From an uncultured Lactobacillus sp. (GTDB lineage: Bacteria; Bacillota; Bacilli; Lactobacillales; Lactobacillaceae): a DNA stretch of 64,000 nucleotides. Shown in pieces: positions 5,747-49,225 of this stretch; the stretch's first letter is position 1, and every line of letters starts with the position of its first letter. A program made the position numbers and the translations under genes. Location of the stretch: NCBI RefSeq assembly GCF_944327175.1, contig NZ_CALVGT010000055.1, forward strand, positions 10,121 to 74,120. The letters are read 5' to 3'. The notes under the pieces are model-generated. The model did not search any database and was not told the DNA's origin. It worked only from the letters and a program-made list of their open reading frames with translations.

Positions 5747-7831
5747 ATGGCTAACAAACGTGAATTCTCATTAGAGAAGACTCGCAACATCGGTATCATG
5801 GCCCACATCGACGCCGGTAAGACTACTACTACTGAACGTATCCTTTACTACACTGGTAAGATCCACAAGATTGGTGAAACTCACGAAGGTGACTCCCAAA
5901 TGGACTGGATGGAAGAAGAAAAGGAACGTGGGATCACGATCACTTCCGCAGCCACTACTGCTCAATGGAAGGACCACCGGATCAACATCATCGACACCCC
6001 AGGACACGTTGACTTCACTATCGAAGTTGAACGTTCCCTGCGTGTCCTTGACGGCGCCGTAACTGTTCTGGACGCTCAATCAGGTGTTGAACCACAAACC
6101 GAAAACGTTTGGCGTCAAGCTGAAAACTACGGTGTTCCACGGATCGTCTTCGTTAACAAGATGGACAAGATCGGTGCCAACTTCGACTTTTCAGTTAAGA
6201 GTCTGCACGAACGTTTGAACGCTAACGCTATCGCCGTTCAAATGCCTATCGGTGCTGAAGACCAATTCGAAGGCGTTATCGACTTGTTCGACATGGTTGC
6301 TGACGTTTACGACGAAGACAAGTTGGGCGCAAACTGGGAAACTATTCCAGTTCCAGACGAATACAAGGAAGAAGCTGAAAGCCGTCGTGAAGAAATGATC
6401 GAACAGATCGCTGAAATTGACGACGACATCATGGAAAAGTTCCTTGGCGGTGAAGAAATCTCCAACGAAGAACTTAAGGCTGCTTTGCGTCGGGCAACTT
6501 TGAACTTGAAAGCCTTCCCAGTATTTGCTGGTTCAGCCTTCAAGAACAAGGGTGTGCAAATGATGCTTGACGGCGTGATCGACTACCTGCCATCACCACT
6601 TGACGTTAAGCCATATGTTGCTCACGACAAGGACGGCAACGAAGTTGAACTGCTGGCTGACGACAACAAGCCATTCGCAGCTTTGGCCTTCAAGATCGCT
6701 ACTGACCCATTCGTTGGTCGTTTGACTTTCATCCGTGTCTACACTGGTTCATTGGAATCAGGTTCTTACGTATTGAACGCTTCAAAGAACCAACGTGAAC
6801 GTGTTGGCCGTTTGCTGCAAATGCACGCCAACTCACGTACTGAAATCCCAGAAGTCTTCTCAGGTGACATCGCTGGTGCCATCGGTTTGAAGAACACCAC
6901 TACTGGTGACTCTTTGACTGACCCAGCTCACCCATTGATTCTGGAAAGCCTGGACATCCCAGCTCCAGTTATCCAAGTTTCAGTTGAACCTAAGTCAAAG
7001 GCTGACCGGGACAAGATGGACGTCGCTTTGCAAAAGCTGACTGAAGAAGACCCAACTTTCCGGGCTGAAACTAACCCAGAAACTGGTGAAACTTTGATCT
7101 CCGGGATGGGTGAACTTCACCTGGACATCATGGTTGAACGTATGAAGCGTGAATTCAACGTTGAAGCAACGATCGGTGAACCACAAGTTGCCTACCGTGA
7201 AACCTTCACTGTACCGACTCAAGCTCAAGGTAAGTTTGTTCGTCAGTCCGGTGGTAAGGGTCAATACGGTGACGTTTGGATCGAATTTACTCCAAACGAA
7301 GGCAAGGGCTACGAATTCGAAGACGCCATTGTCGGTGGTGTAGTTCCTCGTGAATACATCCCATCAGTTGACGCTGGTCTGCAAGAAGCCATGAAGAACG
7401 GTGTTCTGGCTGGCTACCCATTGATCGACGTTAAGGCTAAGCTGTACGATGGTTCATACCACGAAGTCGACTCAAGTGAAGCTGCCTTCAAGGTTGCCGC
7501 ATCATTGGCTTTGAAGAACGCTGCTTCAAAGGCCGGCGCTGTTATCCTTGAACCAATCATGAAGGTTCAAGTCATCGCTCCAGAAGAATACCTTGGTGAC
7601 GTTATGGGCTCAATCACTGCTCGTCGTGGCCAAATGGAAGGTATGGAAGACCGGGCAGGTGCCAAGGTCATCAACGCGATGGTTCCATTGTCAGAAATGT
7701 TTGGTTACGCAACTACCCTGCGTTCATCCACTCAAGGCCGTGGTACCTTCACGATGGTTATGGACCACTACTCACCATGTCCTAAGTCAATCCAAGCTGA
7801 CATCATCAAGAAGCGTGGCGGCAACGCTTAA
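5747..7831 (+). CDS. fusA: Elongation factor G
   Basis: G-domain motifs [17 protein letters not shown] and NKMD. 694 aa, following rpsG. Confidence 0.98.
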
Positions 7832-7874
7832 TGCTTCCTAGCATGATCTAAGCCTTGATTTAGACCAAAACAGA

Positions 7875-7915
7875 AATCCTAGCAAAGACATTGCTTGTCC
7901 TTGCTAGGATTTTTT
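7875..7915 (+). terminator. Intrinsic terminator of the str operon
   Basis: AATCCTAGCAA ... TTGCTAGGATT followed by a T-run. Confidence 0.8.
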
Positions 7916-8025
7916 GTATTTTTAAAAAACTGTATTCTGGAAATATGTTAAAAAGGAAAGAAAAATTTCTCCACCAAGGGAAAGTAATTATAGAAAATTT
8001 TTTCGAAAAAAATCGGGCTAAACCC

Positions 8026-8054
8026 TTGCTATTTAAGGCTTAAGGCCTTATACT
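8026..8054 (+). promoter_or_regulatory. Candidate promoter of the S10 operon
   Basis: TTGCTA, 17 nt spacer, TATACT. Confidence 0.55.
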
Positions 8055-8059
8055 AGATA

Positions 8060-8205
8060 AAGTGCTTTTGAGAGGGAAGTTGCCCTCTGAGTACAAATTG
8101 TAGTTAGCTTCGACGCGGAAGGTTGCGGCACACCAGGCTGCATTGCCACAGTGGTTGTGCAGGGAATTTTCGCCGAGCTAGTCATCTTTTAAAGAAGACG
8201 TATAG
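8060..8205 (+). promoter_or_regulatory. Structured 5-prime leader of the S10 operon
   Basis: About 150-nt untranslated leader. Local hairpins are AGAGGG..CCCTCT and CTGCA..CCACAGTGG..TGCAG, with a long-range pairing TAGCTTCG / CGAGCTA. Confidence 0.4.
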
Positions 8206-8216
8206 GAGGTAATTAG

Positions 8217-8525
8217 ATGGCAAATGAAAAGATTCGTATTAGATTAAAGTCTTACGAACACAGCATTCTCGATGAATCAGCTGCTAAGATTGTGGACACT
8301 GCGAAGAGAACTGGCGCTGAAATCTCAGGTCCAGTTCCGCTTCCAACTGAAAGAACTTTGTTCACTGTTCTGCGTTCACCACACATGAACAAGGACTCAC
8401 GTGAACAATTCGAAATGCGGACCCACAAGCGTCTGATCGACATCTTGAACCCAACCCCTAAGACGGTTGACTCATTGATGAAGCTCGATCTGCCAAGTGG
8501 CGTTGACATCGAAATTAAGCTTTAA
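8217..8525 (+). CDS. rpsJ: 30S ribosomal protein uS10
   Basis: [15 protein letters not shown]... First gene of the S10 cluster. Confidence 0.98.
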
Positions 8526-32802: not shown

Positions 32803-34410
32803 TTGCATAAGAAGAGGATTGTGTCAGTAACGCTTTTAGCTACGGCGGCGCTTTTGACGGCCTGCGGGCAAAACAAGGAGGCTTCCAGCTCCAAGCAGGT
32901 GATGAAGACAGCCGTGACCGGTGAAATCAGCACCCTGGACTCCAGCAAGTACGGGGACACTGTCAGCTCTGAAACCCTGCAGAACTCCATGGAAGGGCTC
33001 TACCGTTTTGATAAAAAGGGGCAGGCCCAGTTGGCCGGGGCGGTCAAGGTGACCAAGTCCAAGGACCAGAAGGTTTACACCTTTACCCTTAGAAAAAACG
33101 CCAAGTGGTCCAACGGGGATCCGGTAACGGCCCAGGACTACGTCACTGCCTGGCGGCGAACAGTTGACCCCAAGAACGATTCCCTGGACAGCGACAGCTA
33201 CCAGGTGATCAAGAACGGGACGGACATCGTAGCTGGCAAGAAGAAGGTGTCCAGCCTGGGCATCAAGGCCTTGGGCAAGTACAAGCTGCAGATTACCCTA
33301 GAAAACCCGATCCAGTATTTGCCGGACCTCTTGACTGGGGCCCAGTTCTACCCGCAGGACACGAAGATCGTCAAAAAGTACGGGTCTAGCTACGGGACCA
33401 GCTCTAGCAAGCTGGTTTACAACGGACCATTTACTGTCAGCCAGTGGACCGGATCCAACCTCAAGTGGACTTTGAAGAAGAACAAGACTTACTGGAATGC
33501 CAAGTCAGTCAGCTTGAGCGCGGTCAAGGTCCAGGTCATCAAGACCACCTCTACCGGCCTCAACCTCTACAAGGGCGGGCAGCTGGACTACGCGCCAGTT
33601 GATGCTGACTACGTCAAGCAGTATGAAAAGAATGCTGACTACCACACTAAGACTACGCCAACTAACGGCTACATGGTCTTTAACACCAAGCGTAAGACCA
33701 CCGGTAATGTCCACGTCCGCCGGGCAATCAGCCTGGGCGTGAACAAGCAGGAATTGGTGAAGACGGTCTTGCACTCGGGCAAGGCTGCCCAAGGCCTGGT
33801 AGCCAGTGACTTCATCTATGATGAAAGCGGCAAGGACTACCGGACCAGTGCCGGCAAGCTGATGACCTACAATTTAAAGCAAGCTCAAAAGGAATGGGCT
33901 TTGGCCAAAAAGCAGCTGGGCAAGTCCAAGATCACGATTGAGCTTTTAACCAGTGATATGGATGCGTCTAAGCGGGTAGGTGAATACCTGCAGAGCAACT
34001 TGATGGAGAACCTGCCGGGCTTGACCGTTAAATTGCGGTCAATTCCACTGAAGTCCCGCCTGGCGGACACGACCAAGCATAACTTTGACATGGTTTACGG
34101 GACTTGGCAGCCAAGCTTCCAGGACCCGATCGACTACTTGACCATCGGTGGCCTCTTCAACCTGGAAACTGACTACAAGAACAGCACTTTCTGGAAGGAA
34201 ATCAACCAGGCGAAGAGCACTTACGCCACCCAGCCAGCCAAGCGACAGGCCAGCTTGATCGCTGCTGAAAAGCAATTGATCCAAAAGGATGCTTTCGCGG
34301 CACCACTCTACCAAGCCGGGGTTTCCTACCTGCTTAAGTCCAAGGTGACCGGCTTCCGCCTGTCTCCTTACGGGACTGTTGCCTACTACTGGGACATCAA
34401 GATTAAATAA
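32803..34410 (+). CDS. Peptide/oligopeptide ABC transporter substrate-binding lipoprotein (family 5, OppA-like), orphan (start TTG 32803)
   Basis: Lipobox LLTAC-G. About 535 aa of SBP_bac_5-like sequence. GGGAGG RBS 7 nt before the TTG. No permease or ATPase genes are adjacent. Confidence 0.85.
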   Translation: MHKKRIVSVTLLATAALLTACGQNKEASSSKQVMKTAVTGEISTLDSSKYGDTVSSETLQNSMEGLYRFDKKGQAQLAGAVKVTKSKDQKVYTFTLRKNAKWSNGDPVTAQDYVTAWRRTVDPKNDSLDSDSYQVIKNGTDIVAGKKKVSSLGIKALGKYKLQITLENPIQYLPDLLTGAQFYPQDTKIVKKYGSSYGTSSSKLVYNGPFTVSQWTGSNLKWTLKKNKTYWNAKSVSLSAVKVQVIKTTSTGLNLYKGGQLDYAPVDADYVKQYEKNADYHTKTTPTNGYMVFNTKRKTTGNVHVRRAISLGVNKQELVKTVLHSGKAAQGLVASDFIYDESGKDYRTSAGKLMTYNLKQAQKEWALAKKQLGKSKITIELLTSDMDASKRVGEYLQSNLMENLPGLTVKLRSIPLKSRLADTTKHNFDMVYGTWQPSFQDPIDYLTIGGLFNLETDYKNSTFWKEINQAKSTYATQPAKRQASLIAAEKQLIQKDAFAAPLYQAGVSYLLKSKVTGFRLSPYGTVAYYWDIKIK

Positions 34411-34432
34411 AACAAGTTCTAAGCCGGTAAAA

Positions 34433-34476
34433 GCTGCCAGTTTCTCTCAATAAGGAAGAAACTGACGGCTTTTTTT
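34433..34476 (+). terminator. Intrinsic terminator after the OppA-like gene
   Basis: GCTGCCAGTTTCT ... AGAAACTGACGGC followed by T7. Confidence 0.8.
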
Positions 34477-34557
34477 GCGAAAAAAAGAAGCATTCTGCAA
34501 CTATTTTGCCCGTATAGCGGGTACAATAGTATTTAGTTTTTTGACCAGGAGGCGGAC

Positions 34558-35670
34558 ATGAGCAAATACATCAAAGTTGGCAGCGGCGGTGGTGAAGTGA
34601 CCTGGCACCGGGCCATGCTCGACATGGAGCCGGGGGACTATCTGCTGCTGGAGCCCGGCTATTACGTTTGGCCCCGGGGCCGGCTATTAGAAGACGTGAC
34701 CATCAAGGGCCTGGGGGCCAGTCCGGAAGACACCCGGATCCGCAGCTTTTTCTCAATCGGGAAAAACAGCTCCCGGGTGGTTTTTGAAAACTTGACTCTG
34801 GAACCTTACGGGGACGTAAATACCCTGGATTTGCCGGAAGAGACCAACAGCTACCTGATCCTGCGCGGCTGCGTCTTGACCGGGACCGGCAGCATGACGA
34901 CTACGATTTCCGTCAACGGCCAGGACACGGTGGAAATGTACTCCTGCCGCCTGCTCAACGGGACCCTGTCCTTTTTTGAAAAAGCCAATTTCCGCCTGGA
35001 AATGGCGGACTGCCTGCTGGACTATGAATCAGAAAAATTCGGCACCATCTCTTTGGAAGGGACCGGGACGGCCATCATTAATAATTCCGAGATCCGGGGG
35101 ACGGTCAACAGCTTTGATTCCAGCAACATCGAATTAAACATCAATAACTCCGCCATCGGCAACCTTAACTTAGGCGGCAAGAGCTGGGTTAATGTCTACG
35201 CCTGCCGTTTTCTTAACCGGGACTACAGCCTTTATGCCCGGGGCGAATGCTGGCTGAACATCCTGGAGAGCCAAATGCCTAGCCAATTGGCCATCGAAGA
35301 CCACTGCCACTTGCTAATGCAGAACAGCCAGCTCTACAGTTTCCAGGCCAGAGGGGAGAGCCAGAGCTTTTTATCCAATGTCCAGATCGCGGCCGCGGTC
35401 AGCCTGGAAGGCAAAAGCTTCCTGGAAGGCAGCTTAGTGACCTTCTCCGGCAACGGCGACTACCCTTACTTCATCTTCCTGGTCGACCAGGCGGTATTGA
35501 AGGGGCGGAACCTGCAATTTGACCCGCAGAACTGGCCGGTTTTGGTAGACAATGATGCCCGCTTAGTGGCCAATGCCCTTTATTACCAGGGGGCGCCACT
35601 GGAAATCAAGTGTGAGCATCCGGAAAATATCTCTTTGATGGGGATCAAGTGGACTGAACGGAAGGAATAG
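34558..35670 (+). CDS. Cytoplasmic right-handed parallel beta-helix repeat protein A (function unknown)
   Basis: 370 aa, no signal peptide or TM segment. N-terminal cap motif W..A....EPGDYLLLEPGYY...VTIKG, typical of pectate-lyase-fold proteins. This is followed by about 11 repeats of roughly 22-25 aa (LILRGCVL, VEMYSCRLL, LEMADCLL, INNSEIRG, NINNSAIG, VYACRFL ...). AGGAGG RBS upstream. Confidence 0.7.
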   Translation: MSKYIKVGSGGGEVTWHRAMLDMEPGDYLLLEPGYYVWPRGRLLEDVTIKGLGASPEDTRIRSFFSIGKNSSRVVFENLTLEPYGDVNTLDLPEETNSYLILRGCVLTGTGSMTTTISVNGQDTVEMYSCRLLNGTLSFFEKANFRLEMADCLLDYESEKFGTISLEGTGTAIINNSEIRGTVNSFDSSNIELNINNSAIGNLNLGGKSWVNVYACRFLNRDYSLYARGECWLNILESQMPSQLAIEDHCHLLMQNSQLYSFQARGESQSFLSNVQIAAAVSLEGKSFLEGSLVTFSGNGDYPYFIFLVDQAVLKGRNLQFDPQNWPVLVDNDARLVANALYYQGAPLEIKCEHPENISLMGIKWTERKE

Positions 35671-35682
35671 AAAGGAGCCACC

Positions 35683-36738
35683 ATGCGCTTAATCAAAGTA
35701 AGCCAGGACCCCCGGGACTTGTCCTGGGAGCAAGCTTTAGACCAGCTGGAAGACGATGACGTGCTCATGCTGGCTCCCGGCTTTTATCAAATTCCTTTTG
35801 GGAAAAAGCTGAAGAACATCGTGATCAAGGGGACGGGGACAGCTCCAGATATGACGACACTGGTTGGCACGGTCATCCTGGATGGCCGCTATTTGACCCT
35901 GGAAAACCTGGCCGTCAAGACCAAGGCAATTGCCGGGGCCCTGGTCAGAGTTGACGAAGGAGAAAATGCTCCTTACCTGACCCTGCGCGGCTGCCGGCTG
36001 GAAGCAGCAGACACGGCTCTCATGACCCAGGGACCGGTCTGGCTGGAACTTTACTCCTGCCAGGTCAAAGGGGTAATCCGCCTGGTTGGCGATAAGGAGC
36101 AGCATGTCCAGATCTCTTCCAGTGAAATCGCGGCAACTCCAGCTGCTTTTACCGGCAATGGCTTTGGCCTATTAGCCATCAGCCAGTCCCAGATCAAGGG
36201 GGATTTTGTCCTGGAGGAAAGTTCGGCCTATGAAGGGCACTTTGACCAGACGGCTTTTGACCAAGTGACCAGCTTGAGCGAAGGAAACGACCTTTACGTC
36301 ACTGAGTCTGCCCTGTCTTTAACTCTGAAAAACGGCCAGGCAGACCTTTTGAACTGCGACTTGCCGGGGACAGCCCTTTTGGAAAAAGCCAAATCAGCTG
36401 CTTTCCAAAACTGCACTTTTAAACAATTCAAGCAGGTCAGCGGGAGCAGCAACTTAACCAACTGCCACTTGGAGGTAGGGGAAATCATGGGCCAGGGCAA
36501 GGCTTTTTTTTGCCGGCCGCACTTTTCCTGCAGCGAAGGCACTTGGCTTAGCCTAAGTGGCTCAGTCCAGGTCCGCCTGCAGGATGCCCTCTTAAACGTG
36601 GCTGGCAGCCACTTGCGCCTGGCCGACAAAGCCGGAATCTTGGGTAATATTTTGGAGAGCGACCAGGACCAGCTACTGGTCAAGCAGACTGGCCGGGGCA
36701 AGGTAAAATTGACGGGAATTAAATGTAAACTTGTCTAA
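35683..36738 (+). CDS. Cytoplasmic right-handed parallel beta-helix repeat protein B (paralog of A)
   Basis: 351 aa. It has the same N-terminal cap (W..AL..LEDDDVLMLAPGFY...IVIKGTG), the same repeat pattern (LTLRGCRLE, LELYSCQVK, LLNCDLP, FQNCTFK, LTNCHLE) and a homologous C-terminus (TGIKCKLV versus MGIKWTERK). It starts 12 nt after A, with an AAAGGAG RBS. Confidence 0.7.
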   Translation: MRLIKVSQDPRDLSWEQALDQLEDDDVLMLAPGFYQIPFGKKLKNIVIKGTGTAPDMTTLVGTVILDGRYLTLENLAVKTKAIAGALVRVDEGENAPYLTLRGCRLEAADTALMTQGPVWLELYSCQVKGVIRLVGDKEQHVQISSSEIAATPAAFTGNGFGLLAISQSQIKGDFVLEESSAYEGHFDQTAFDQVTSLSEGNDLYVTESALSLTLKNGQADLLNCDLPGTALLEKAKSAAFQNCTFKQFKQVSGSSNLTNCHLEVGEIMGQGKAFFCRPHFSCSEGTWLSLSGSVQVRLQDALLNVAGSHLRLADKAGILGNILESDQDQLLVKQTGRGKVKLTGIKCKLV

Positions 36739-36804
36739 AGGCCGCCTTTTGCTATAGAATTTAATTAAGATCCAAGCTTGATGATTCTGTGGGGGGACAG
36801 ACCG

Positions 36805-37506
36805 ATGCAAGAACCAATGTACATCAAAATTCACAACCAGCTGCGCCGGGACATTGAAAACCATGTCTACCAGGTGGGGGACCGGATTCCAGCCGAACGG
36901 CAGCTGGCCGAGCAGTTCAAGGTGTCGCGAATGACCCTGCGTCAGGCCATCAAGACCCTGGAAGAAGAAGGGATTTTGGAAAGACGGCTGGGCAGCGGGA
37001 CTTACGTGGCCAGCCAGAAGGTCCAGGAAAAGATGTCCGGGATCATGTCCTTTACTGAGATTACCCGGGCCAACGGGCAGACCCCGTCCAGCAAACTGGT
37101 GTCTTACAAGATCACCCAGCCTTCCCTGTCTGAAAAGGAGCGGCTGGCCCTTGAAGGCGGCGACAAGGTTCTGCGCATGGAGCGGATCCGCTATGCCGAC
37201 CAGGTGCCAATCTGCCATGAAATCGTGACGGTGCCAGAAGACCTGATCGCGGCTTTTGCCAAAGAAGACGTGTCAAGCCACCTTTACCAGACCTTGGAAA
37301 AGCAGGGGGGCTACCAGATTGGGGATGCAACTGAGTATATCTCAGCCACTGTCGCCAATGAACAGGAGGCCCGCCTGCTCAATTGCCGCCGTGGGGAAGC
37401 CTTGATTACCCGCCGGCAGGTCACCAAACTGGCCGATGGCCGGCCCTTTGAATACACGCGGGCTTCATACGTGGGTGAGCGCTTCGAATTTACTTTCAGC
37501 AAATAG
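36805..37506 (+). CDS. GntR-family transcriptional regulator, HutC subfamily (wHTH plus UTRA domain) (start ATG 36805)
   Basis: IPAERQLAEQFKVSRMTLRQAIKTLEEEGILERRLGSGTYV is a typical GntR wHTH, and the C-terminal half is UTRA-like. GGGGGGA RBS 7 nt upstream. Confidence 0.88.
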   Translation: MQEPMYIKIHNQLRRDIENHVYQVGDRIPAERQLAEQFKVSRMTLRQAIKTLEEEGILERRLGSGTYVASQKVQEKMSGIMSFTEITRANGQTPSSKLVSYKITQPSLSEKERLALEGGDKVLRMERIRYADQVPICHEIVTVPEDLIAAFAKEDVSSHLYQTLEKQGGYQIGDATEYISATVANEQEARLLNCRRGEALITRRQVTKLADGRPFEYTRASYVGERFEFTFSK

Positions 37507-37537
37507 CCAGCTGGATAGCTGAATAAGAGAATGACAA

Positions 37538-37565
37538 AGAGACAGGTTCAGTCCTGCCTCTTTTT
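37538..37565 (+). terminator. Intrinsic terminator after the gntR-like gene
   Basis: AGAGACAGG ttcagt CCTGCCTCT followed by T5. Confidence 0.65.
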
Positions 37566-37668
37566 GCTTCCTTTAAAAAAGGGCAAAAGATGGAACTTGC
37601 TTTTGGCGGCAGGGGGCGAATTTGCTAAAATGGACTTGATACTATTAGCTAATGATTAACGAGGCACT

Positions 37669-38808
37669 ATGAAAAGCATACTATTCCGCCTATATCTGGC
37701 AGTCATGAAATTTTTGGCCCGCTGGCAAAAAGAAGACCCCAACACATACGTGATTTTGAACGGGGCCGGCCGGTCGGGGTCAAATGGCTACCTTTTTTAT
37801 AAATATCTGCGCCGCGAGCACCCGGAAGTCACGGCCTACTTGATCGAGCCCTGGCCTTCTTCCCACCTGCCCTGGTCAGACTGGCAAAAAATCGGCCGGG
37901 CCAAGTACGTCTTGACCACCCACCAGCCCTTCAAGGTCCGGAAAAGCCAGGTCAACCTGGCCCTCTGGCATGGGATTCCGCTAAAGCGGATGGGGACCAT
38001 GGCCAACAATACTCAGCGCCGGGACAACCAGAGAAATGAAAAGCTCTGGCACAAGATGGCCGACCTGGTCACCGCCAGTTCGGAACTCTATGAAAGCTTG
38101 ATGAGCGCCTGCATGGGGATTGAAGGTCCCCGCTATGTCCAGCTGGGTTTCCCCAGAATTGATTCCTTGCTCAAGTCTCCTTATAAGAAAGAACAGCTTC
38201 TGGCTGACTTTTTCTCCTGCCAGGACCCGGAGGCCCAAGTAGGGATCTATGTGCCGACTTTCCGCTATGAATTGGAAGAGCCGGAAGTGATGGAGCGGAT
38301 TAAGGAAGGGAACTTTTTTGCCTTCAGCGACTTCGACCTGGCCGCTTTAGACCAGGCCCTGGCTGCTAGAAAGCAGTACCTCCTGGTCAAGCTCCACCCT
38401 TGGGAAATGAAGCTCTTCAGCGACTTCCACTTAGCGGCCAAGCACGTGGCCTTTTTGAACAATTCCGATCTTTTGGCGAAAAAGCTGGACCTCTACGAAA
38501 TCCTGGGAGCCACCGACTTCCTCATGACCGACTTCTCTTCGATCTACTTTGACTACCTCCATTTGGACAAGCCGCTGATTTTCATCACCAACTACCTGGC
38601 CCAGTATGAAAAGACCCGGGGCTTTTTGCTGGGGCCTTATAAAAAAATCGTCCCTGGTCCCTGCGTGGCCAGCCAGGCTAACCTGGTCAAGCAGCTGGGT
38701 GAAAAAGACGGGTATGGCCTTGAGCGGAAAAAGTGGCTGGAGCTGAGCGACCAGGCCGACCACGGCCAGGCCTGCCAGACAATTTTTGATTACTTAAGCG
38801 GGGTCTGA
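37669..38808 (+). CDS. CDP-glycerol glycerophosphotransferase family protein (TagB/TagF-like)
   Basis: LWHGIPLKRMG and IYVPTFR motifs characteristic of PF04464 enzymes. Confidence 0.82.
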   Translation: MKSILFRLYLAVMKFLARWQKEDPNTYVILNGAGRSGSNGYLFYKYLRREHPEVTAYLIEPWPSSHLPWSDWQKIGRAKYVLTTHQPFKVRKSQVNLALWHGIPLKRMGTMANNTQRRDNQRNEKLWHKMADLVTASSELYESLMSACMGIEGPRYVQLGFPRIDSLLKSPYKKEQLLADFFSCQDPEAQVGIYVPTFRYELEEPEVMERIKEGNFFAFSDFDLAALDQALAARKQYLLVKLHPWEMKLFSDFHLAAKHVAFLNNSDLLAKKLDLYEILGATDFLMTDFSSIYFDYLHLDKPLIFITNYLAQYEKTRGFLLGPYKKIVPGPCVASQANLVKQLGEKDGYGLERKKWLELSDQADHGQACQTIFDYLSGV

Positions 38809-38811
38809 TCC

Positions 38812-40239
38812 TTGAAAAAAACTTTTCTGAACATCTTCTATAACGCGGTCTACCAGGTCTTCCTGGTCCTGGTGCCCTTGATCACGGTTCCTTACCTGTC
38901 CAGAGTCCTGGGCCCGACGACCTACGGGATCTATTCCAGCGTCAACAACACGGTCCAGTTTCTGATGATTTTCTGTGTCCTGTCTTTATCCAATATCGGG
39001 GTCAGAAGCATCTCTAAAGCTAGGGCCAAAAACAAGAGCGGGGAACTGACCGAGGCCTTCTGGGGCTTGTGGTACTTCCAGTTTATCGGCGGCTTGGTAA
39101 CCATCGCCTTGACTGTCTTGACCTGCTTGGCCCTCAAGGTCCGTTACTGGAACTACTTCCTGCTGATGCTGCCATACTTGATTGCCGCCCAGTTTGACAT
39201 CTCCTGGTTCTTCCAGGGCCTGGCTGATTTTGGCCGGGTGGTCTTAAGAAACACCATCGTCAAGGTCGTCAGCGTGGTCTTTATCTTGCTTTTGATCAAA
39301 AGTCCGGCTGACCTGTGGAAGTATTTCTTGATCATGTCCGTGTCTACTATGCTGGGTTCCTTTGTCTTCTGGTTCAGCATCGGCAAGTATGTCGGCCGGC
39401 CAGTCAAGCATTTCTATCATTTCGTGGAAACCCGCCGGGCGATCATGACCTTGATGATTCCCCAGATCGCGACCCAGATTTACACTTCCTTGGACAAGCC
39501 CCTTTTGGGCCTCTTCCAAAATACGGCCCAGGTCTCTTACTATGATAATTCCCAGCGGATTTCCAACATGATCCTGGGGGTTATCACCAGTATTTCTCTG
39601 GTCATCATGCCACAGATGGCGGTCCAGGGGAAGGAAACCCAGAAGAAGGTCTTGAAGAAGTCCCTGGAAGCCACGACCATGCTGGGAACCATGTTTGCCA
39701 TGGTGGTCATGGCCAATACCAAGGAATTCGTGCCCTTTTTCTTCGGGAAAAAATATATCCCGATGACCCCCTTGATGTTCTTCTTCACCTTGACCATCAT
39801 CTTGATCCCTATGGGCGGGGTCTTCGCCAACCAGTTTGCCCTGGCCAACAAGCGGGACAAGGACTATGCCATTCCGGTTACGATCGGGGCGGTCCTGGAG
39901 CTGGTCTTCAGCTACTTTTTGGACCGGCCTTTCGGGGCAGCAGGGGCCATGGTGGCGATCCTCTTGACTGAAGCTGTCGTTCTCTTTCTGCGCTGCTGGA
40001 TCGTGCGGGATGGTTATGACTTCAAGGAAACTTTCAGCGATGTGCCCAAGTGCTTTTTGGCCATGGGGATCAGCCTGGCGGCAGGGATGCTGTGGCCTTG
40101 GCAGATTCCAAGTGCTTTTATCAACATGACGGTCAAGTCCCTGGTCATTATAGCCTTGTACCTGGCCATTCTCTGGCTCTTGAAGTTTGACTTGAACACA
40201 GACTTGGTCACGATCGTCAAAAAGCGCTTGAAAAAATAG
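38812..40239 (+). CDS. Polysaccharide/teichoic-acid flippase of the MOP superfamily (Wzx-like)
   Basis: TTG start. 475 aa, about 14 TM. The N-terminus NAVYQVFLVLVPLITVPYLSRVLGPTTYGIYS is typical of polysaccharide biosynthesis (PST) proteins. Confidence 0.8.
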   Translation: MKKTFLNIFYNAVYQVFLVLVPLITVPYLSRVLGPTTYGIYSSVNNTVQFLMIFCVLSLSNIGVRSISKARAKNKSGELTEAFWGLWYFQFIGGLVTIALTVLTCLALKVRYWNYFLLMLPYLIAAQFDISWFFQGLADFGRVVLRNTIVKVVSVVFILLLIKSPADLWKYFLIMSVSTMLGSFVFWFSIGKYVGRPVKHFYHFVETRRAIMTLMIPQIATQIYTSLDKPLLGLFQNTAQVSYYDNSQRISNMILGVITSISLVIMPQMAVQGKETQKKVLKKSLEATTMLGTMFAMVVMANTKEFVPFFFGKKYIPMTPLMFFFTLTIILIPMGGVFANQFALANKRDKDYAIPVTIGAVLELVFSYFLDRPFGAAGAMVAILLTEAVVLFLRCWIVRDGYDFKETFSDVPKCFLAMGISLAAGMLWPWQIPSAFINMTVKSLVIIALYLAILWLLKFDLNTDLVTIVKKRLKK

Positions 40240-40289
40240 CTACTAATAAGGAAGAAATCAGCAAAAATAAACAAAGAAAGCGTGTAAGC

Positions 40290-41024
40290 ATGGTAAAAAT
40301 CAATATTTTGGGCGTTGGCTTCGACAAGTACAGCCTGGCGGAATTTGAAGCCCGCTTTTTGGACCGCTTGCGGAAAAAAGAATCCACCCTGGTGGTCACG
40401 GCCAACCCGGAAATCGTCATGGCCGCTAAAGAAGATCCGGAATACCGGGAAATCATCAACAATGTGGCGGATTACGTAACGGCTGACGGGATCGGCATCA
40501 TCAAGGGGGCCAAGATGCTAGGGATGAAGCTGCCGGAGAGAGTAACCGGCTACGACCTCTTTTGCTGGTACCTGCAAATCGCCAATGAAGACCACTTGCG
40601 GGTCTACCTGATTGGGGCCAAGCTAGCCGTAATCGCTGCCGTTAAGGAAAAAATCGCCAAGGACTACCCGGGCATCGACTTAGTCGGCGCTGAGGATGGC
40701 TACTCCCAAGATGCCCTGCCGGAAATTGCCAGCCGGATCGCCCAAAGCAGGCCCGACCTGGTCTTCGCGGCTCTGGGCTTTCCTAAGCAGGAGAAGCTCC
40801 TGGCCATCTTGCGCAAGCAAAACTTGCCAGCTAGCATGATGGGGGTGGGCGGCAGCTTTGACGTCTTCGCCGGCGCCGTCAAGCGGGCACCGAAGCTCTT
40901 CCAGGATGCCCACTTGGAATGGTTCTACCGGCTCTTGAAGGAACCAAGCCGGATCGGCCGGATGATGGTTTTGCCAAAATTCGTCGTGGAAGTTAAAAAG
41001 AGCAAGAAGCGGGACAAGCAATAA
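40290..41024 (+). CDS. tagA: WecB/TagA/CpsF-family glycosyltransferase (N-acetylmannosaminyltransferase-like)
   Basis: 244 aa. INILGVGFD...VVTANPEIVM...GFPKQE pattern of the GT26 family. Confidence 0.8.
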   Translation: MVKINILGVGFDKYSLAEFEARFLDRLRKKESTLVVTANPEIVMAAKEDPEYREIINNVADYVTADGIGIIKGAKMLGMKLPERVTGYDLFCWYLQIANEDHLRVYLIGAKLAVIAAVKEKIAKDYPGIDLVGAEDGYSQDALPEIASRIAQSRPDLVFAALGFPKQEKLLAILRKQNLPASMMGVGGSFDVFAGAVKRAPKLFQDAHLEWFYRLLKEPSRIGRMMVLPKFVVEVKKSKKRDKQ

Positions 41025-42124
41025 TGAAAGTACTGCATATTAACGCCGGCCTGGAAAGCGGGGGCGGGCTGACCCATATCGTGAACCTGCTTTCCCAGGC
41101 CAAAAAGGCGGGGCAGGATTTTGACATCTTGACCTTTGCTGAAGGGCCGGTTGCCCAGGCTGCCCGGGAAAAAGGGATCAAGGTGATTGTTTTAGGTGGC
41201 TCCAGCCGCTACGACCTGGCCCTGCTCAAGCGGCTGAAAAAGACAATCAAGGATGGGCATTACGACCTGGTCCACAGCCATGGAGCCCGGGCCAACCTTT
41301 TTGTCAGCTTGATCAAGTCATCCTTGCCTTGTCCCTGGCTGATCACGGTCCACTCGGATCCGGCGATCGACTTTGAAGGACGGGGAATCGCGGGGAAGAT
41401 TTTTACCAAGCTGAACCTGCGGGCGATCAAGCAGGCCGATGGTGTCTTTGCCATCACTCCCCGTTTTGAAAAAATTCTGCTGAATTACGGAGTAAAGCCC
41501 AGCCGGATTTACGTTATCTATAACGGGATCAGCTTTAGGGACAATAGAAATATAGCAGGCAAGGAAGACCACGCCGGCTTCAACATCATCAATGTTGGCC
41601 GCCTGGAAAAGGTCAAGGGGCAAGATCTTTTGCTCAAGGCCTTTAAAGCAGCCAATTTGCCGCAAGCCCACCTCTATATCGCCGGCAGCGGCAGCCAGGA
41701 AGCGGACTTGAAAAAATTACGGCAGGATTTGGCCTTAACCGACCAAGTGACTTTTACCGGCTTTTTGACCCAGGAAGAATTAAGGCAGCTCTACCGGAAG
41801 ATGGACCTGGCCGTCTTGTCTTCTTACTCAGAAAGCTTCCCCCTGGTCTTGCTGGAAGCAGCCGACAACCTGCTTCCACTTTTATCTACTGACGTGGGCG
41901 GGGCCAGGGAACTGATTCCAGAAGGAAAAGGCTGGGTTGTGCCGGTCAACGAAGAAAAAAACATGGCCGGTCAGTTAAAAGCAATCGCGGCTTTGCCAAA
42001 AGAAGAGCTCGCAGCAATTGCCCAAGCGGAAAAAGCCTATGCCCGCCAGCACTTTTCCCTGGACCGGCAACTGGCTGATGTTCTGGCCGGCTACCAGGCC
42101 TGCCTGCAAGGAGAAAAAGCATGA
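41024..42124 (+). CDS. Glycosyltransferase family 4 (GT-B, Glycos_transf_1)
   Basis: 366 aa. N-terminal GGL.HI pattern and a C-terminal E(x7)E-like region SESFPLVLLEAAD. Confidence 0.8.
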   Translation: MKVLHINAGLESGGGLTHIVNLLSQAKKAGQDFDILTFAEGPVAQAAREKGIKVIVLGGSSRYDLALLKRLKKTIKDGHYDLVHSHGARANLFVSLIKSSLPCPWLITVHSDPAIDFEGRGIAGKIFTKLNLRAIKQADGVFAITPRFEKILLNYGVKPSRIYVIYNGISFRDNRNIAGKEDHAGFNIINVGRLEKVKGQDLLLKAFKAANLPQAHLYIAGSGSQEADLKKLRQDLALTDQVTFTGFLTQEELRQLYRKMDLAVLSSYSESFPLVLLEAADNLLPLLSTDVGGARELIPEGKGWVVPVNEEKNMAGQLKAIAALPKEELAAIAQAEKAYARQHFSLDRQLADVLAGYQACLQGEKA

Positions 42125-42822
42125 TTCCCAAAATTATCCACTATGTCTGGGTGGGCGGCAATCCCAAGTCCAAGACCATCCAGACCTGTCTGGCCTCTTG
42201 GCAAAAGCGCCTGCCGGACTATGAAATCATCGAATGGAACGAAGATAAGCTGGACCTGAATGCCAACAAATATGTCAAGCAGGCCTACCAGGCCAAGAAG
42301 TGGGCCTTCGTTTCCGACTATGTCCGGGCCAAGGCCCTCTATGAAATGGGCGGGATCTACCTGGACACCGACGTCATGGTCTTAAAAGATTTTGACGACT
42401 TGCTAAATGACCGGGCCTTTATCGGCTTTGAAAACAATGACTACCTGTCCGCTGCAATCATCGCGGCGGAGAAGGGGCATCCTTTTATGGCTGACATTCT
42501 GCACTACTATGACGACCTGGATTTTGCCTTTGACCAAAAGGACCAGCTGGCCGGGGTCAACTCCCTGTCTGTCACGGAAATTCTCAAAGAAAAGTATGGC
42601 CTTAAGACCGGCAACCAAGAACAACTATTAAAGGAAGGAATCCATGTTTATCCAGACGGGATCCTCTGCAACCCTTCCCCTCAGTCCCGGTCCATTCACC
42701 TTTTTACCGGGACCTGGATGGAAGGAAAAAATTCCTGGAAGCACGACCTGGTCACCTTTTTGAAATTACATATCCGCAGTCAAAAAGCTGCAAAAATTTA
42801 CTACCAGCTCTTCAGACGATAA
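42121..42822 (+). CDS. DXD-type glycosyltransferase (Gly_transf_sug / GT32-like)
   Basis: IPKIIHYVWVGG...WNE...SDYVRAKALYEMGGIYLDTDV is the signature of PF04488. Confidence 0.78.
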   Translation: MIPKIIHYVWVGGNPKSKTIQTCLASWQKRLPDYEIIEWNEDKLDLNANKYVKQAYQAKKWAFVSDYVRAKALYEMGGIYLDTDVMVLKDFDDLLNDRAFIGFENNDYLSAAIIAAEKGHPFMADILHYYDDLDFAFDQKDQLAGVNSLSVTEILKEKYGLKTGNQEQLLKEGIHVYPDGILCNPSPQSRSIHLFTGTWMEGKNSWKHDLVTFLKLHIRSQKAAKIYYQLFRR

Positions 42823-46832: not shown

Positions 46833-46894
46833 CAAAGGAGAAAAGATCACAATTTGTTCACGTTTGTGCTGTGTTAAGTTTTGGAGGAAAGAGT

Positions 46895-47710
46895 ATGTTG
46901 ACCAGAACGAGAAAAATATATGTGGGAGCAGTAGCGATCTACTTGCTAATAATCGCAGGACAAGTGGCGTATGCTATTTATGACAATCCTACCCCGTTTA
47001 AAGATAACACATACGCCTTTGATTATTTGTTTGATACGGTTCAACCGTTAGGGGTTGATGAAACTATGATTGGTGCTATTGCTATTTTTCTGTTTGTACC
47101 AATTATTGGGGCCGCTTTAGCAATCTATATTAAGAACAATCACGAGTTGTACAATGTTGTGGGGCGAACAGGTTGGAAAAAATTTTTTGCTAGAAATATA
47201 AGTTATACGTTTTTGGGCGGATTAGGCTTATATTGGTTGGGCTGTCTGTTAGAAGGGCTGATTATCAGTATTTTCTACCATGGCTTTGTTTATATGCCGT
47301 ACAACGAAATAATACTGATTCGAGGGGACAACTATCTCTCACTTAACAATTTGGCAAATCTTTTGATCAAGATTACTCTTTTTGGCATAGGCTGGGGAAT
47401 TTATGCTGTATTTATTTTCAGTGTGGCTTTGTTCGTTAAGAAAAATAGTCTTTGTCTGTTTTTGGGGCCAGTTGTCGGTTTTATAATAACGCTAACAGGA
47501 AATATATCATCTGATATTGGAGGCACTTTATTTATCGTTTCAAATATCTGGAATACTACCAACATTATTAATCCACTGGAGAATGCCACGGTGGAAAATC
47601 CATCCCCGGCAATCTATTATCTAAATTACGCAACGACCGCGGTTTTCTATATTACGCTAACTGCTTTCCTGTTAAGAATTTGGTACATGAAGAATGTAGA
47701 GAAAGGCTAG
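46895..47710 (+). CDS. 6-TM ABC-2-like permease / putative immunity membrane protein, paralog 1 (start ATG 46895)
   Basis: 271 aa with six hydrophobic spans. GGAGGAAA RBS. About 65% identical by eye to paralog 2. Confidence 0.6.
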   Translation: MLTRTRKIYVGAVAIYLLIIAGQVAYAIYDNPTPFKDNTYAFDYLFDTVQPLGVDETMIGAIAIFLFVPIIGAALAIYIKNNHELYNVVGRTGWKKFFARNISYTFLGGLGLYWLGCLLEGLIISIFYHGFVYMPYNEIILIRGDNYLSLNNLANLLIKITLFGIGWGIYAVFIFSVALFVKKNSLCLFLGPVVGFIITLTGNISSDIGGTLFIVSNIWNTTNIINPLENATVENPSPAIYYLNYATTAVFYITLTAFLLRIWYMKNVEKG

Positions 47711-48363: not shown

Positions 48364-48394
48364 GCAAAGGAGTAGTGGAACTCTTTTGCTTTTT
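48364..48394 (+). terminator. Hairpin plus T-run between the secreted-protein gene and permease 2 (partial or read-through terminator)
   Basis: GCAAAGGAG tagtggaa CTCTTTTGC followed by TTTTTG. The permease 2 RBS starts 7 nt later, so there is no room for a promoter. Confidence 0.6.
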
Positions 48395-48409
48395 GTGTGT
48401 AGAGGAAAA

Positions 48410-49225
48410 ATGTTAACTAAAACTAAAAAGATTTTTTTTATAGCAACTGTTATTTACTTGCTAGTCATCATAGGGCAAGTGGCGTATGCAATCTATGACA
48501 ATCTTCCAGTATTAAAAAGCAACAATTATGCCTTTGACTATTTATATGATATGGTCCAATACGGTGGTGCAAATGAAACTGTAATTGGAGAAGTTGCTAG
48601 TTATCTATTAGTGCCCATGATTGGTGCTGGTTTGGCTATATATATGAAAAATAGTCATGAACTGTATAGTATCGTTTCACGAATTGGCTGGAGTCAATTT
48701 TTTAAGAAAAGTATAAAATATACTTTTTGGGGCGCAACAATCCTTTATTGGTTGGGCTGTCTGATCGAAATGGTGATAATAAATATTTTCTACCATCACT
48801 TTGTATACCAACCATTTGCACAAGATATTCTGATCCGTGGAGATGGCTACTTTTCACTAAATAATTTAGCTAATTTGGTGATCAAGACCATTCTAAATGG
48901 ATTTGGTTGGGGAATTTTTGCAATTTTCATTTTTAACCTAGCTTTGTTTGTCAAGAAAACCAGTCTTTGCTTCTTTTTAGGTCCCGTTATTGGCTATCTT
49001 ATAACAATTCAAGAATCTTTATCTGGGGATATTGGCGGAACGGTGCGTGTGCTTTCAAATATCTGGGATACTACCAACATTATGAACCCTATAGAGAATG
49101 CCATGGTGCAAGATCCCTCTCCGGCAATCTATTATTTAAATTACGCAACGACCGCGATTTTCTATATTACGCTGACTGCTGTTTTGTTAAGAATTTGGTA
49201 CATGAAGAATGTAGAGAGAGGGTAA
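48410..49225 (+). CDS. 6-TM ABC-2-like permease / putative immunity membrane protein, paralog 2 (start ATG 48410)
   Basis: 271 aa. AGAGGAAAA RBS. The last ~100 nt are nearly identical to paralog 1. Confidence 0.6.
   Translation: MLTKTKKIFFIATVIYLLVIIGQVAYAIYDNLPVLKSNNYAFDYLYDMVQYGGANETVIGEVASYLLVPMIGAGLAIYMKNSHELYSIVSRIGWSQFFKKSIKYTFWGATILYWLGCLIEMVIINIFYHHFVYQPFAQDILIRGDGYFSLNNLANLVIKTILNGFGWGIFAIFIFNLALFVKKTSLCFFLGPVIGYLITIQESLSGDIGGTVRVLSNIWDTTNIMNPIENAMVQDPSPAIYYLNYATTAIFYITLTAVLLRIWYMKNVERG

Follow-up and report, generated by a model that had tools for sequence, protein, structure and literature searches.

Layout of the bhA-bhB-nagR locus

We analyzed a 64,000-nt stretch of DNA from an uncultured Lactobacillus sp. 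(contig NZ_CALVGT010000055.1, positions 10,121 to 74,120 of the forward strand; hereafter the window), concentrating on two adjacent L. delbrueckii genes, bhA and bhB, and on the GntR-type regulator gene that follows them, nagR. The bhA gene represents an uncharacterised, genus-restricted family of stand-alone right-handed beta-helix proteins in Lactobacillus, and it holds in that genus the position that nagA has in sister genera. The unit is made up of the following features.

34429-34476, + strand: intrinsic terminator of the upstream oppA-like gene, a hairpin with a U7 tail; 5' boundary of the unit
34558-35670, + strand: bhA gene, 370 aa; right-handed beta-helix protein, probably intracellular; conserved ancestral member of a Lactobacillus-specific family
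35671-35677, + strand: ribosome-binding site of bhB, AAAGGAG, read from the sequence, immediately 3' of the bhA stop codon
35683-36738, + strand: bhB gene, 351 aa; bhA paralogue with the same predicted fold, in the delbrueckii clade only
36805-37506, + strand: nagR gene; HutC-type GntR repressor with winged helix-turn-helix and UTRA domains; follows nagA in other Lactobacillaceae
37535-37568, + strand: terminator-like hairpin with U5 after nagR, called from folding energy; 3' boundary of the unit

Both open reading frames (ORFs) that a first-pass annotation had described as adjacent genes for 370-aa and 351-aa proteins were confirmed on the plus strand. They are 12 nt apart, with no stable hairpin within 35655-35700 at their junction, and no terminator-like structure was seen in the interval between bhB and nagR. 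The terminators proposed to flank the unit were both recovered, at different strengths: the upstream hairpin (34429-34473) is strong, with a folding energy of -20.6 kcal/mol, a z score of -3.6 and 0 of 200 shuffled sequences equally stable, and the hairpin after nagR (37535-37566) is moderate (-11.8 kcal/mol, z score of -2.0). The nagR start is better set at the ATG at 36805, giving a protein of 233 aa, than at the TTG at 36778, because orthologues begin M-x-EPMYIKIHNQ. The G+C content at third codon positions (GC3) of bhA (0.74) is like that of neighbouring genes, and that of bhB is lower (0.64). An Rfam scan and Tandem Repeats Finder found nothing over 34000-38000; the repeats of bhA and bhB exist at the level of protein structure only.

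Predicted fold of bhA and bhB

To characterise the two proteins, we combined structure prediction with sequence and profile searches. AlphaFold2 returned all-beta solenoids with an N-terminal helix for both, with predicted local distance difference test (pLDDT) scores of about 94 (93.8 for bhA and 94.1 for bhB), predicted template modelling (pTM) scores of 0.90 and 0.89, respectively, and rungs of ~18-26 residues. Foldseek searches of PDB and viral models with either protein returned solely right-handed beta-helix proteins, among them PL6 lyases, AlgE epimerases, tailspikes and the adhesin PfbA, although the matches were weak (E values of ~1e-5 to 5e-5, TM scores of 0.2-0.5 and ~10% identity). 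In Pfam, PF13229 (Beta_helix) was matched by 5 out of 20 family members, with a best E value of 2.9e-7; bhA and bhB of the window themselves had no Pfam match at E values up to 1. Because the models, the Foldseek matches and the PF13229 matches agree, we regard the fold class as settled: the two proteins are predicted right-handed beta-helices, as the first-pass annotation had proposed, with no close characterised family. They are also paralogues that have diverged strongly, again as proposed, with 24% identity over 312 residues by BLASTP (E = 6e-17).

The same searches bore out the view that no function can be assigned by similarity, as neither profiles nor structures matched a characterised enzyme family. 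Scans of bhA and bhB against NCBIfam, PADLOC and PHROGs gave nothing significant, the NCBIfam model TIGR03805 matching bhB weakly (E = 0.063). PDB sequence and profile searches found nothing for bhA, and for bhB and the family profile the best E values were above 0.5. We looked specifically for close similarity to polysaccharide lyases (PL6, PL9 and PL1) and to beta-helix glycosidases and epimerases and found none, the best Foldseek E value being 5e-5. The secreted beta-helix carbohydrate-active enzymes and tailspikes (PL6 chondroitinase B, alginate lyases, AlgE epimerases and P22-type tailspikes; top Foldseek matches 7o78, 7o7a, 5gkq, 1dbg, 2pyg and 1tsp) have the fold class and the N-terminal PG.Y cap motif in common with bhA and bhB. 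By contrast, TM scores against them were 0.2-0.4, with a root-mean-square deviation above 10 A, ~10% identity and no profile match, and bhA and bhB have no export signal, a feature typical of, though not universal in, PL6/PL9/PL1-type enzymes. Pentapeptide-repeat proteins of the MfpA/Qnr type were rejected as relatives: bhB matched them at chance level (E values of 0.1 and 0.6 over ~40 residues), and its rungs have 18-26 residues.

A genus-restricted family with relatives fused to AAA+ ATPases

Word-indexed protein searches with bhA and bhB returned Lactobacillus proteins only. We then carried out an exhaustive profile search of 1.84 billion representative sequences, which gave 123 matches at E values up to 1e-3. 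Roughly twelve of them spanned the whole protein, and these came from Lactobacillus wherever the source names the organism. The other matches covered the first 110-130 residues only (E values of 1e-11 to 1e-18), and most were large proteins in which an N-terminal beta-helix is followed by one or two AAA+ modules of the SpoVK/EccA/CbbX type; examples are found in Oceanobacillus neutriphilus (WP_188736937), Paucilactobacillus suebicus (WP_010622596), Xylocopilactobacillus apicola and an Actinomycetaceae metagenome-assembled genome (MAG).

These AAA+ N-domains have a cap and first rungs homologous to those of bhA, with the motifs GD..L.L.PG.Y and KG.G..P in common; like bhA, they lack a signal peptide and have a cytoplasmic setting, and they are present in other Lactobacillaceae. 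They differ in length (~250 residues) and in being joined to two AAA+ modules, typically with a small membrane protein encoded before them, whereas bhA and bhB are free-standing and longer (13 or more rungs), and the family carries a stripe of conserved residues, described below, that the fused domains do not have. Pfam detected no AAA domain in bhA, bhB or the neighbouring genes. SpoVK-clade AAA+ proteins are known to carry variable N-domains, including the beta-helix of EccA, that probably recruit substrates, and such domains have been read as the recruiting modules of chaperones acting on envelope enzymes (PMC11513918).

The gene contexts of the AAA+-fused relatives were uninformative except for a small membrane-protein gene, which precedes the beta-helix-AAA+ gene in Oceanobacillus, Paucilactobacillus and the Actinomycetaceae MAG (L059:5401-8592, L061:6397-9544 and L060:5556-9351, respectively). 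Two of these membrane proteins are homologous (196 aa, E = 4e-10), and a YccF domain is present in the third; together with the beta-helix-AAA+ gene, they look like a conserved two-gene module. A defence system was considered and rejected, the AAA+ relatives giving merely generic ATPase matches to IetA and TRIP13 models. We also rejected as a bhA orthologue a 680-aa protein of L. gasseri and L. taiwanensis (L057:7001-9043), which has two tandem beta-helix domains and a C-terminal SHOCT domain. It is encoded not at nagR but on an element, together with a type IV secretion system (T4SS) coupling protein and a YSIRK surface protein; an ordinary bhA is present at nagR in L. johnsonii and L. taiwanensis.

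Predicted cellular location

Searches of bhA and bhB for a hydrophobic N-terminus, a transmembrane segment, a lipobox and an LPXTG motif found none, and the maximum 19-residue Kyte-Doolittle scores were 0.98 and 1.19, respectively. The proteins contain seven and eight cysteines, respectively; exported proteins of Firmicutes tend to be cysteine-poor. Taken together with the relatives fused to cytoplasmic ATPases, these features agree with the earlier prediction that bhA and bhB are probably intracellular. Indeed, because the relatives are N-domains of cytoplasmic AAA+ ATPases, an intracellular branch of the beta-helix fold appears to exist, with bhA within it.

Could the proteins instead be exported non-classically as surface glycanases or adhesins, or be remnants of phage tailspikes? 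The Foldseek matches do include tailspikes, depolymerases and secreted lyases besides PfbA, and the public names of homologues are "hypothetical protein", "Right handed beta helix domain-containing protein" and, in some L. delbrueckii records, "phage tail protein". We nevertheless consider this explanation very improbable, given not only the missing signals, the cysteines and the ATPase-fused relatives but also the genomic setting: there are no prophage genes nearby, the neighbours being oppA, nagR and wall-polymer genes; tblastn against 50,697 phage and 72,556 plasmid records found no homologue; PHROGs gave no match; and bhA is fixed in the chromosome throughout the genus, its GC3 resembling that of its neighbours. 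The "phage tail protein" label was rejected on these grounds. Several NCBI and UniRef records of this L. delbrueckii bhA protein carry the label, and context, distribution and phage searches lend it no support.

bhA holds the position of nagA beside nagR

The regulator contains GntR (PF00392, E = 6e-22) and UTRA (PF07702, E = 5e-37) domains, and its best full-length relatives of solved structure are YvoA/NagR (E = 6e-37) and DasR (E = 9e-25). It thus has the same architecture as the HutC-type amino-sugar repressors NagR/YvoA of Bacillus subtilis and DasR of Streptomyces, and its DNA-binding domain is nearly invariant across the genus Lactobacillus. Judged by sequence, it is the conserved NagR/YvoA orthologue of Lactobacillaceae, which upholds the proposal that a HutC-type regulator, predicted to sense amino sugars, follows the gene pair; the effector expected for this type of repressor would be GlcNAc-6-P or GlcN-6-P. 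In L. acetotolerans DSM 20749 (L017:7505-8233), the nagR orthologue is split into ORFs at 7505-7915 and 7919-8233, which suggests a frameshift or pseudogene.

Our first set comprised 51 loci retrieved through bhA motifs (FRLEM and EGxGTAIIN), and in all of them (51/51) bhA is followed by the regulator. Because this set had been retrieved through bhA itself, we fetched loci again through the regulator and searched upstream with a hidden Markov model (HMM) of the family. The model found bhA directly upstream of nagR in 62 out of 62 evaluable Lactobacillus loci, including those of L. johnsonii, L. taiwanensis, L. hominis, L. rodentium and L. colini. No beta-helix gene lay upstream of nagR in the 16 loci examined from Pediococcus, Lacticaseibacillus, Liquorilactobacillus, Agrilactobacillus, Limosilactobacillus and Enterococcus; in these genera nagA is directly upstream (E = 7e-81 against B. 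subtilis NagA, 2vhl; Pfam Amidohydro_1).

The reciprocal comparison gave the same picture. A nagR orthologue (52-62% identity) is directly downstream of nagA in 75 out of 80 nagA loci from many Lactobacillaceae genera, and a beta-helix gene is present in 0 out of 80, all of them from genera other than Lactobacillus; no nagA was found in the 64-kb window. Lactobacillus nagR thus differs from the nagA-nagR operons in being preceded by bhA instead of nagA. The regulator is therefore older than bhA, with nagA as its ancestral partner, and is not dedicated to the beta-helix module, contrary to the suggestion that it forms part of the pair's own unit. The pair itself is also a local feature: bhB is confined to L. 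delbrueckii, L. nasalidis, L. equicursoris and a single other genome (L006-L014 and equivalents), so the ancestral unit is a single beta-helix gene with nagR, and the pair is restricted to the delbrueckii clade. Of the idea that an old duplication had been kept as a pair, the paralogy stands, but no pair exists outside that clade.

Predicted promoters and operators at the locus

Three features upstream of bhA and nagR bear on their control.

34509-34521, no strand assigned: palindrome CCCGTATAGCGGG, proposed earlier, with 4-bp arms, within a 31-bp imperfect inverted repeat at 34500-34530
34522-34527, + strand: -10 box TACAAT of the bhA promoter, from an anchored alignment of 38 distinct upstream regions
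36731-36760, + strand: promoter-like site before nagR, TTGTCT-18-TAGAAT, from a promoter scan

In the 38 upstream regions, conservation of (a)gTACAATAG extends over the whole genus, at a constant distance from the bhA start codon; a simple sigma-70 scan missed this promoter because its -35 region is poor. The palindrome that abuts the -10 box had been put forward as a possible operator, which we do not find credible. Its geometry is trivial, 4+5+4 inverted repeats occurring at 355 of the 64,000 window positions, and other L. delbrueckii strains (L009/L010) and sister species (L012, L014) lack the palindrome or have it in broken form. An element resembling CCTATTTT lies ~20 nt upstream of the TACAAT box in many species; in the window it forms the 31-bp imperfect inverted repeat around the -10 box (34500-34530).

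At nagR, in ~45 Lactobacillus loci, an invariant NagR half-site, AATTGGTCTA, precedes the gene; the invariant element there, TAGACCAATTT, lies in the spacer of a promoter between bhA and nagR (-10 TATAAT). Read on the other strand, this element is AAATTGGTCTA, the half-site of palindromes that precede nagA in two other genera, AATTGGTCTAAACCAATT in Lacticaseibacillus and TGGTCTATACCG in Lacticaseibacillus and Pediococcus; dre-like palindromes such as AATTGGTCTAAACCAATT precede the nagA-nagR operon there. The AAATTGGTCTA half-site also resembles the dre sites of NagR and DasR (TGGTCTAGACCA-like operators). The TAGACCAATTT element is most simply read as a putative autoregulatory operator of NagR. 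In the window, weight-matrix and motif scans of 34300-37800 found no NagR half-site; the half-site before nagR has decayed there (36739-36804), as it has in L. equicursoris (L012 8200-8271). With the half-site gone and the DNA-binding domain of NagR unchanged, autoregulation may have been lost in the delbrueckii clade. Two further sites were noted: a good NagR-type motif, GTAGACCAATTTTGGTTA, just upstream of nadE in L. equicursoris (L012:14233-14258), and a dre-like TTGATTTAGACCAA at 7855-7868 of the window, between fusA and rpsJ of the S10 operon, which was rejected because such matches occur in the window at chance number.

These data bear on whether the adjacency of bhA and nagR means anything. 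It might be a historical accident, with bhA an orphan whose function is unrelated to NagR, amino sugars or wall polymers and which was inserted a single time beside nagR, at the root of the genus, and kept there by a rarely rearranging region; we hold this explanation to be rather unlikely. An accident would fit the order nagR-tagA-(GT4)-pncB-nadE-P-type ATPase, which has been kept from Pediococcus to Lactobacillus with no evident or known common function, as well as the separate promoters of bhA and nagR, the position of the NagR site downstream of bhA, and the loss in L. delbrueckii of even the site before nagR. Yet the genes upstream of bhA vary by clade (oppA, tRNA genes, an aminotransferase and others), with breakpoints directly upstream of bhA and never between bhA and nagR in the 62 loci, and the junction of these two co-oriented genes spans 50-90 nt, in which no terminator is evident.

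Selection and conserved residues

We next compared the constraint on the two proteins. Among six sequences of the L. delbrueckii group, the ratio of nonsynonymous to synonymous substitution rates (dN/dS) was 0.06 for bhA, 0.21 for bhB, 0.02 for nagR and 0.04-0.10 for neighbouring genes. From the values of 0.06 and 0.21, both bhA and bhB encode constrained proteins, with constraint relaxed on bhB, which evolves about four times faster than bhA. The bhB ORF is intact in 43 out of 43 sequence clusters found. Between L. delbrueckii and L. equicursoris, identity is 62% for bhA, 33% for bhB and 64-88% for neighbouring genes. In a neighbour-joining tree, bhB is a single clade of three lineages placed outside the whole of bhA. 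Two histories fit this topology: the duplication may be old, with later loss of bhB, or it may be specific to the clade, with faster evolution of bhB afterwards.

To locate conserved residues, we used 59 non-identical bhA orthologues gathered through nagR and hence independently of bhA sequence. Although these share merely 31-42% identity, R103, D151, T171, E192, W210 and N212 are among the 24 invariant positions, and T124, E126, N234, Q255, N256, R146 and W232 are conserved in 95% or more (the last two in 56 out of 59 each). When rungs were registered from the strands of the model, T124, R146, T171, E192, W210 and W232 fell in one outward-facing column and E126, N212 and N234 in the next, with D151 alongside. 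We infer that these residues form a surface-exposed stripe along six consecutive rungs of one beta-sheet. What bhA has in common with the AAA+-fused domains is residues 1-130, and the stripe (residues 124-234) falls outside this region.

In bhB, the stripe region carries the substitutions R146H, E148Q, D151S, T171L and N175S, and the alignment, which is gapped around W210 and N212, gives no match in either column. Judged from this alignment, bhB has lost most of the conserved surface residues of bhA. Because it also evolves faster, an obligate heteromer of equals is unlikely; of the possible heteromer suggested by the first-pass annotation, the paralogous pair is confirmed, but such an obligate partnership is disfavoured.

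A tentative model for bhA function

We propose that bhA arose at the base of the genus Lactobacillus, directly upstream of nagR and in the place of nagA. It would be transcribed from its own conserved TACAAT promoter, and because no terminator follows it, transcription probably reads through into nagR, which in most species would also have its own promoter bearing the NagR half-site. The bhA protein would bind, and possibly cleave or modify, an extended cytoplasmic ligand along the conserved Arg/Glu/Asp/Trp/Asn stripe. This mix of residues suggests a sugar or sugar-phosphate chain, and the ligand might be an imported oligomer of amino sugars, a product of peptidoglycan recycling or a wall-polymer intermediate linked to lipid. 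Since bhB keeps the fold and not the stripe, it is probably a non-catalytic partner or has a changed specificity. We put this forward as a tentative reading, possible rather than probable: bhA as a cytoplasmic protein that binds, and perhaps processes, an extended and probably sugar-containing ligand, with bhB as a non-catalytic partner or a variant of new specificity. The nature of the ligand, any enzymatic activity and any contact between bhA and bhB are proposals within it.

Several observations weigh against this reading. No profile or structure match pinpoints a catalytic site in bhA; candidates for a catalytic constellation (Ca2+ ligands with a Lys/Arg base, or Asp/Glu pairs, in the groove) would be the conserved R146, D151, E126 and E192. 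The exposure of the stripe is read from strand periodicity rather than from coordinates. In the johnsonii group, E148 and E167 are variable; their conservation had been overstated by the earlier set retrieved with the motifs FRLEM and EGxGTAIIN, which was circular. The NagR operator is downstream of bhA, and with a weight matrix no NagR site was found upstream of it, so that control of bhA by NagR is unsupported. Gene adjacency here is weak evidence of coupling, because the gene order beyond nagR persists with no evident shared function. Finally, the AAA+ N-domains homologous to bhA are thought to recruit protein substrates (PMC11513918), which favours protein binding.

This last point leads to a different proposal, that bhA is a protein-protein adaptor or scaffold that recruits a specific client through its conserved face without acting chemically on glycans; possible clients are an enzyme of envelope biosynthesis and NagR itself. 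The sole sequence relatives outside the family are the N-domains of SpoVK/EccA/CbbX-clade AAA+ proteins, read in the literature as substrate-recruiting parts of chaperones of envelope enzymes (PMC11513918), and profile scans of bhA and bhB for a catalytic motif recognised none. We judge an adaptor unlikely, however: the homology to AAA+ proteins covers residues 1-130 only, whereas the stripe at 124-234 is specific to the Lactobacillus family, and no gene for an AAA+ partner adjoins bhA. Moreover, where Trp, Asn, Glu and Arg abound in such a stripe, sugar binding is the more typical use.

The sugar-ligand reading has a stronger form, which we consider improbable as it stands. Here, bhA would be the founder of a new family of carbohydrate-active beta-helix proteins, enzymes or sensors, that work in the cytoplasm on a substrate containing amino sugar, for instance a product of peptidoglycan recycling or a wall-polymer intermediate linked to lipid. 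Its recruitment beside NagR would date from the time when nagA left the operon, and in the delbrueckii clade bhB would be its degenerate pseudo-enzyme partner.

Strong purifying selection maintains bhA, a core gene, in all examined species of a genus that includes major dairy, gut and vaginal species; the gene has no Pfam family and sometimes a misleading label. Its position, that of nagA beside NagR, suggests amino-sugar metabolism and envelope precursors as a starting point. The family adds an intracellular branch to a fold that is mostly regarded as secreted and links this branch to the little-studied beta-helix N-domains of SpoVK/EccA-type AAA+ chaperones. In L. delbrueckii, bhA and bhB offer a natural comparison between an active-looking protein and a degenerate-looking copy beside it. 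The annotation is corrected in two respects, the label of bhA and the regulator, which is NagR, of 233 aa and starting at 36805. Overall, the fold of bhA is known, this variant of it is uncharacterised, and its genomic position is informative; the finding is interesting rather than extraordinary.

Neighbouring genes

One further feature lies downstream of the unit.

37669-42822, + strand: wall-glycopolymer genes, identified by Pfam matches and by synteny across genera; context, not a demonstrated part of the unit

The cluster encodes a TagF-like glycerophosphotransferase, a Wzx-type flippase, TagA/WecG and glycosyltransferases of the GT4 and GT32 families (Pfam). It starts 163 nt past the regulator; the unit is not isolated, and the earlier remark that no transporter, hydrolase or kinase accompanies the genes overlooks this cluster. 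In the window, the TagF-like gene, the Wzx flippase gene and extra glycosyltransferase genes are inserted into the order nagR-tagA-pncB-nadE. In most Lactobacillus loci, the gene immediately after nagR is convergent and encodes a tagD-like cytidylyltransferase (L001:9906-10292); the delbrueckii clade lacks it there (window 37507-37668) and has the TagF-like and Wzx flippase genes instead.

Two other observations were made. At 46871-47710 and 48386-49225, 0.7 kb apart, the window encodes 279-aa predicted membrane proteins that are 66% identical paralogues with no Pfam match. The record JAEDAG010000001.1 (L014 / L130), filed under "Faecalicatena absiana strain YH-C36a", has a locus collinear with that of L. 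delbrueckii and encodes proteins 54-88% identical to those of the window; it looks mislabelled or contaminated.

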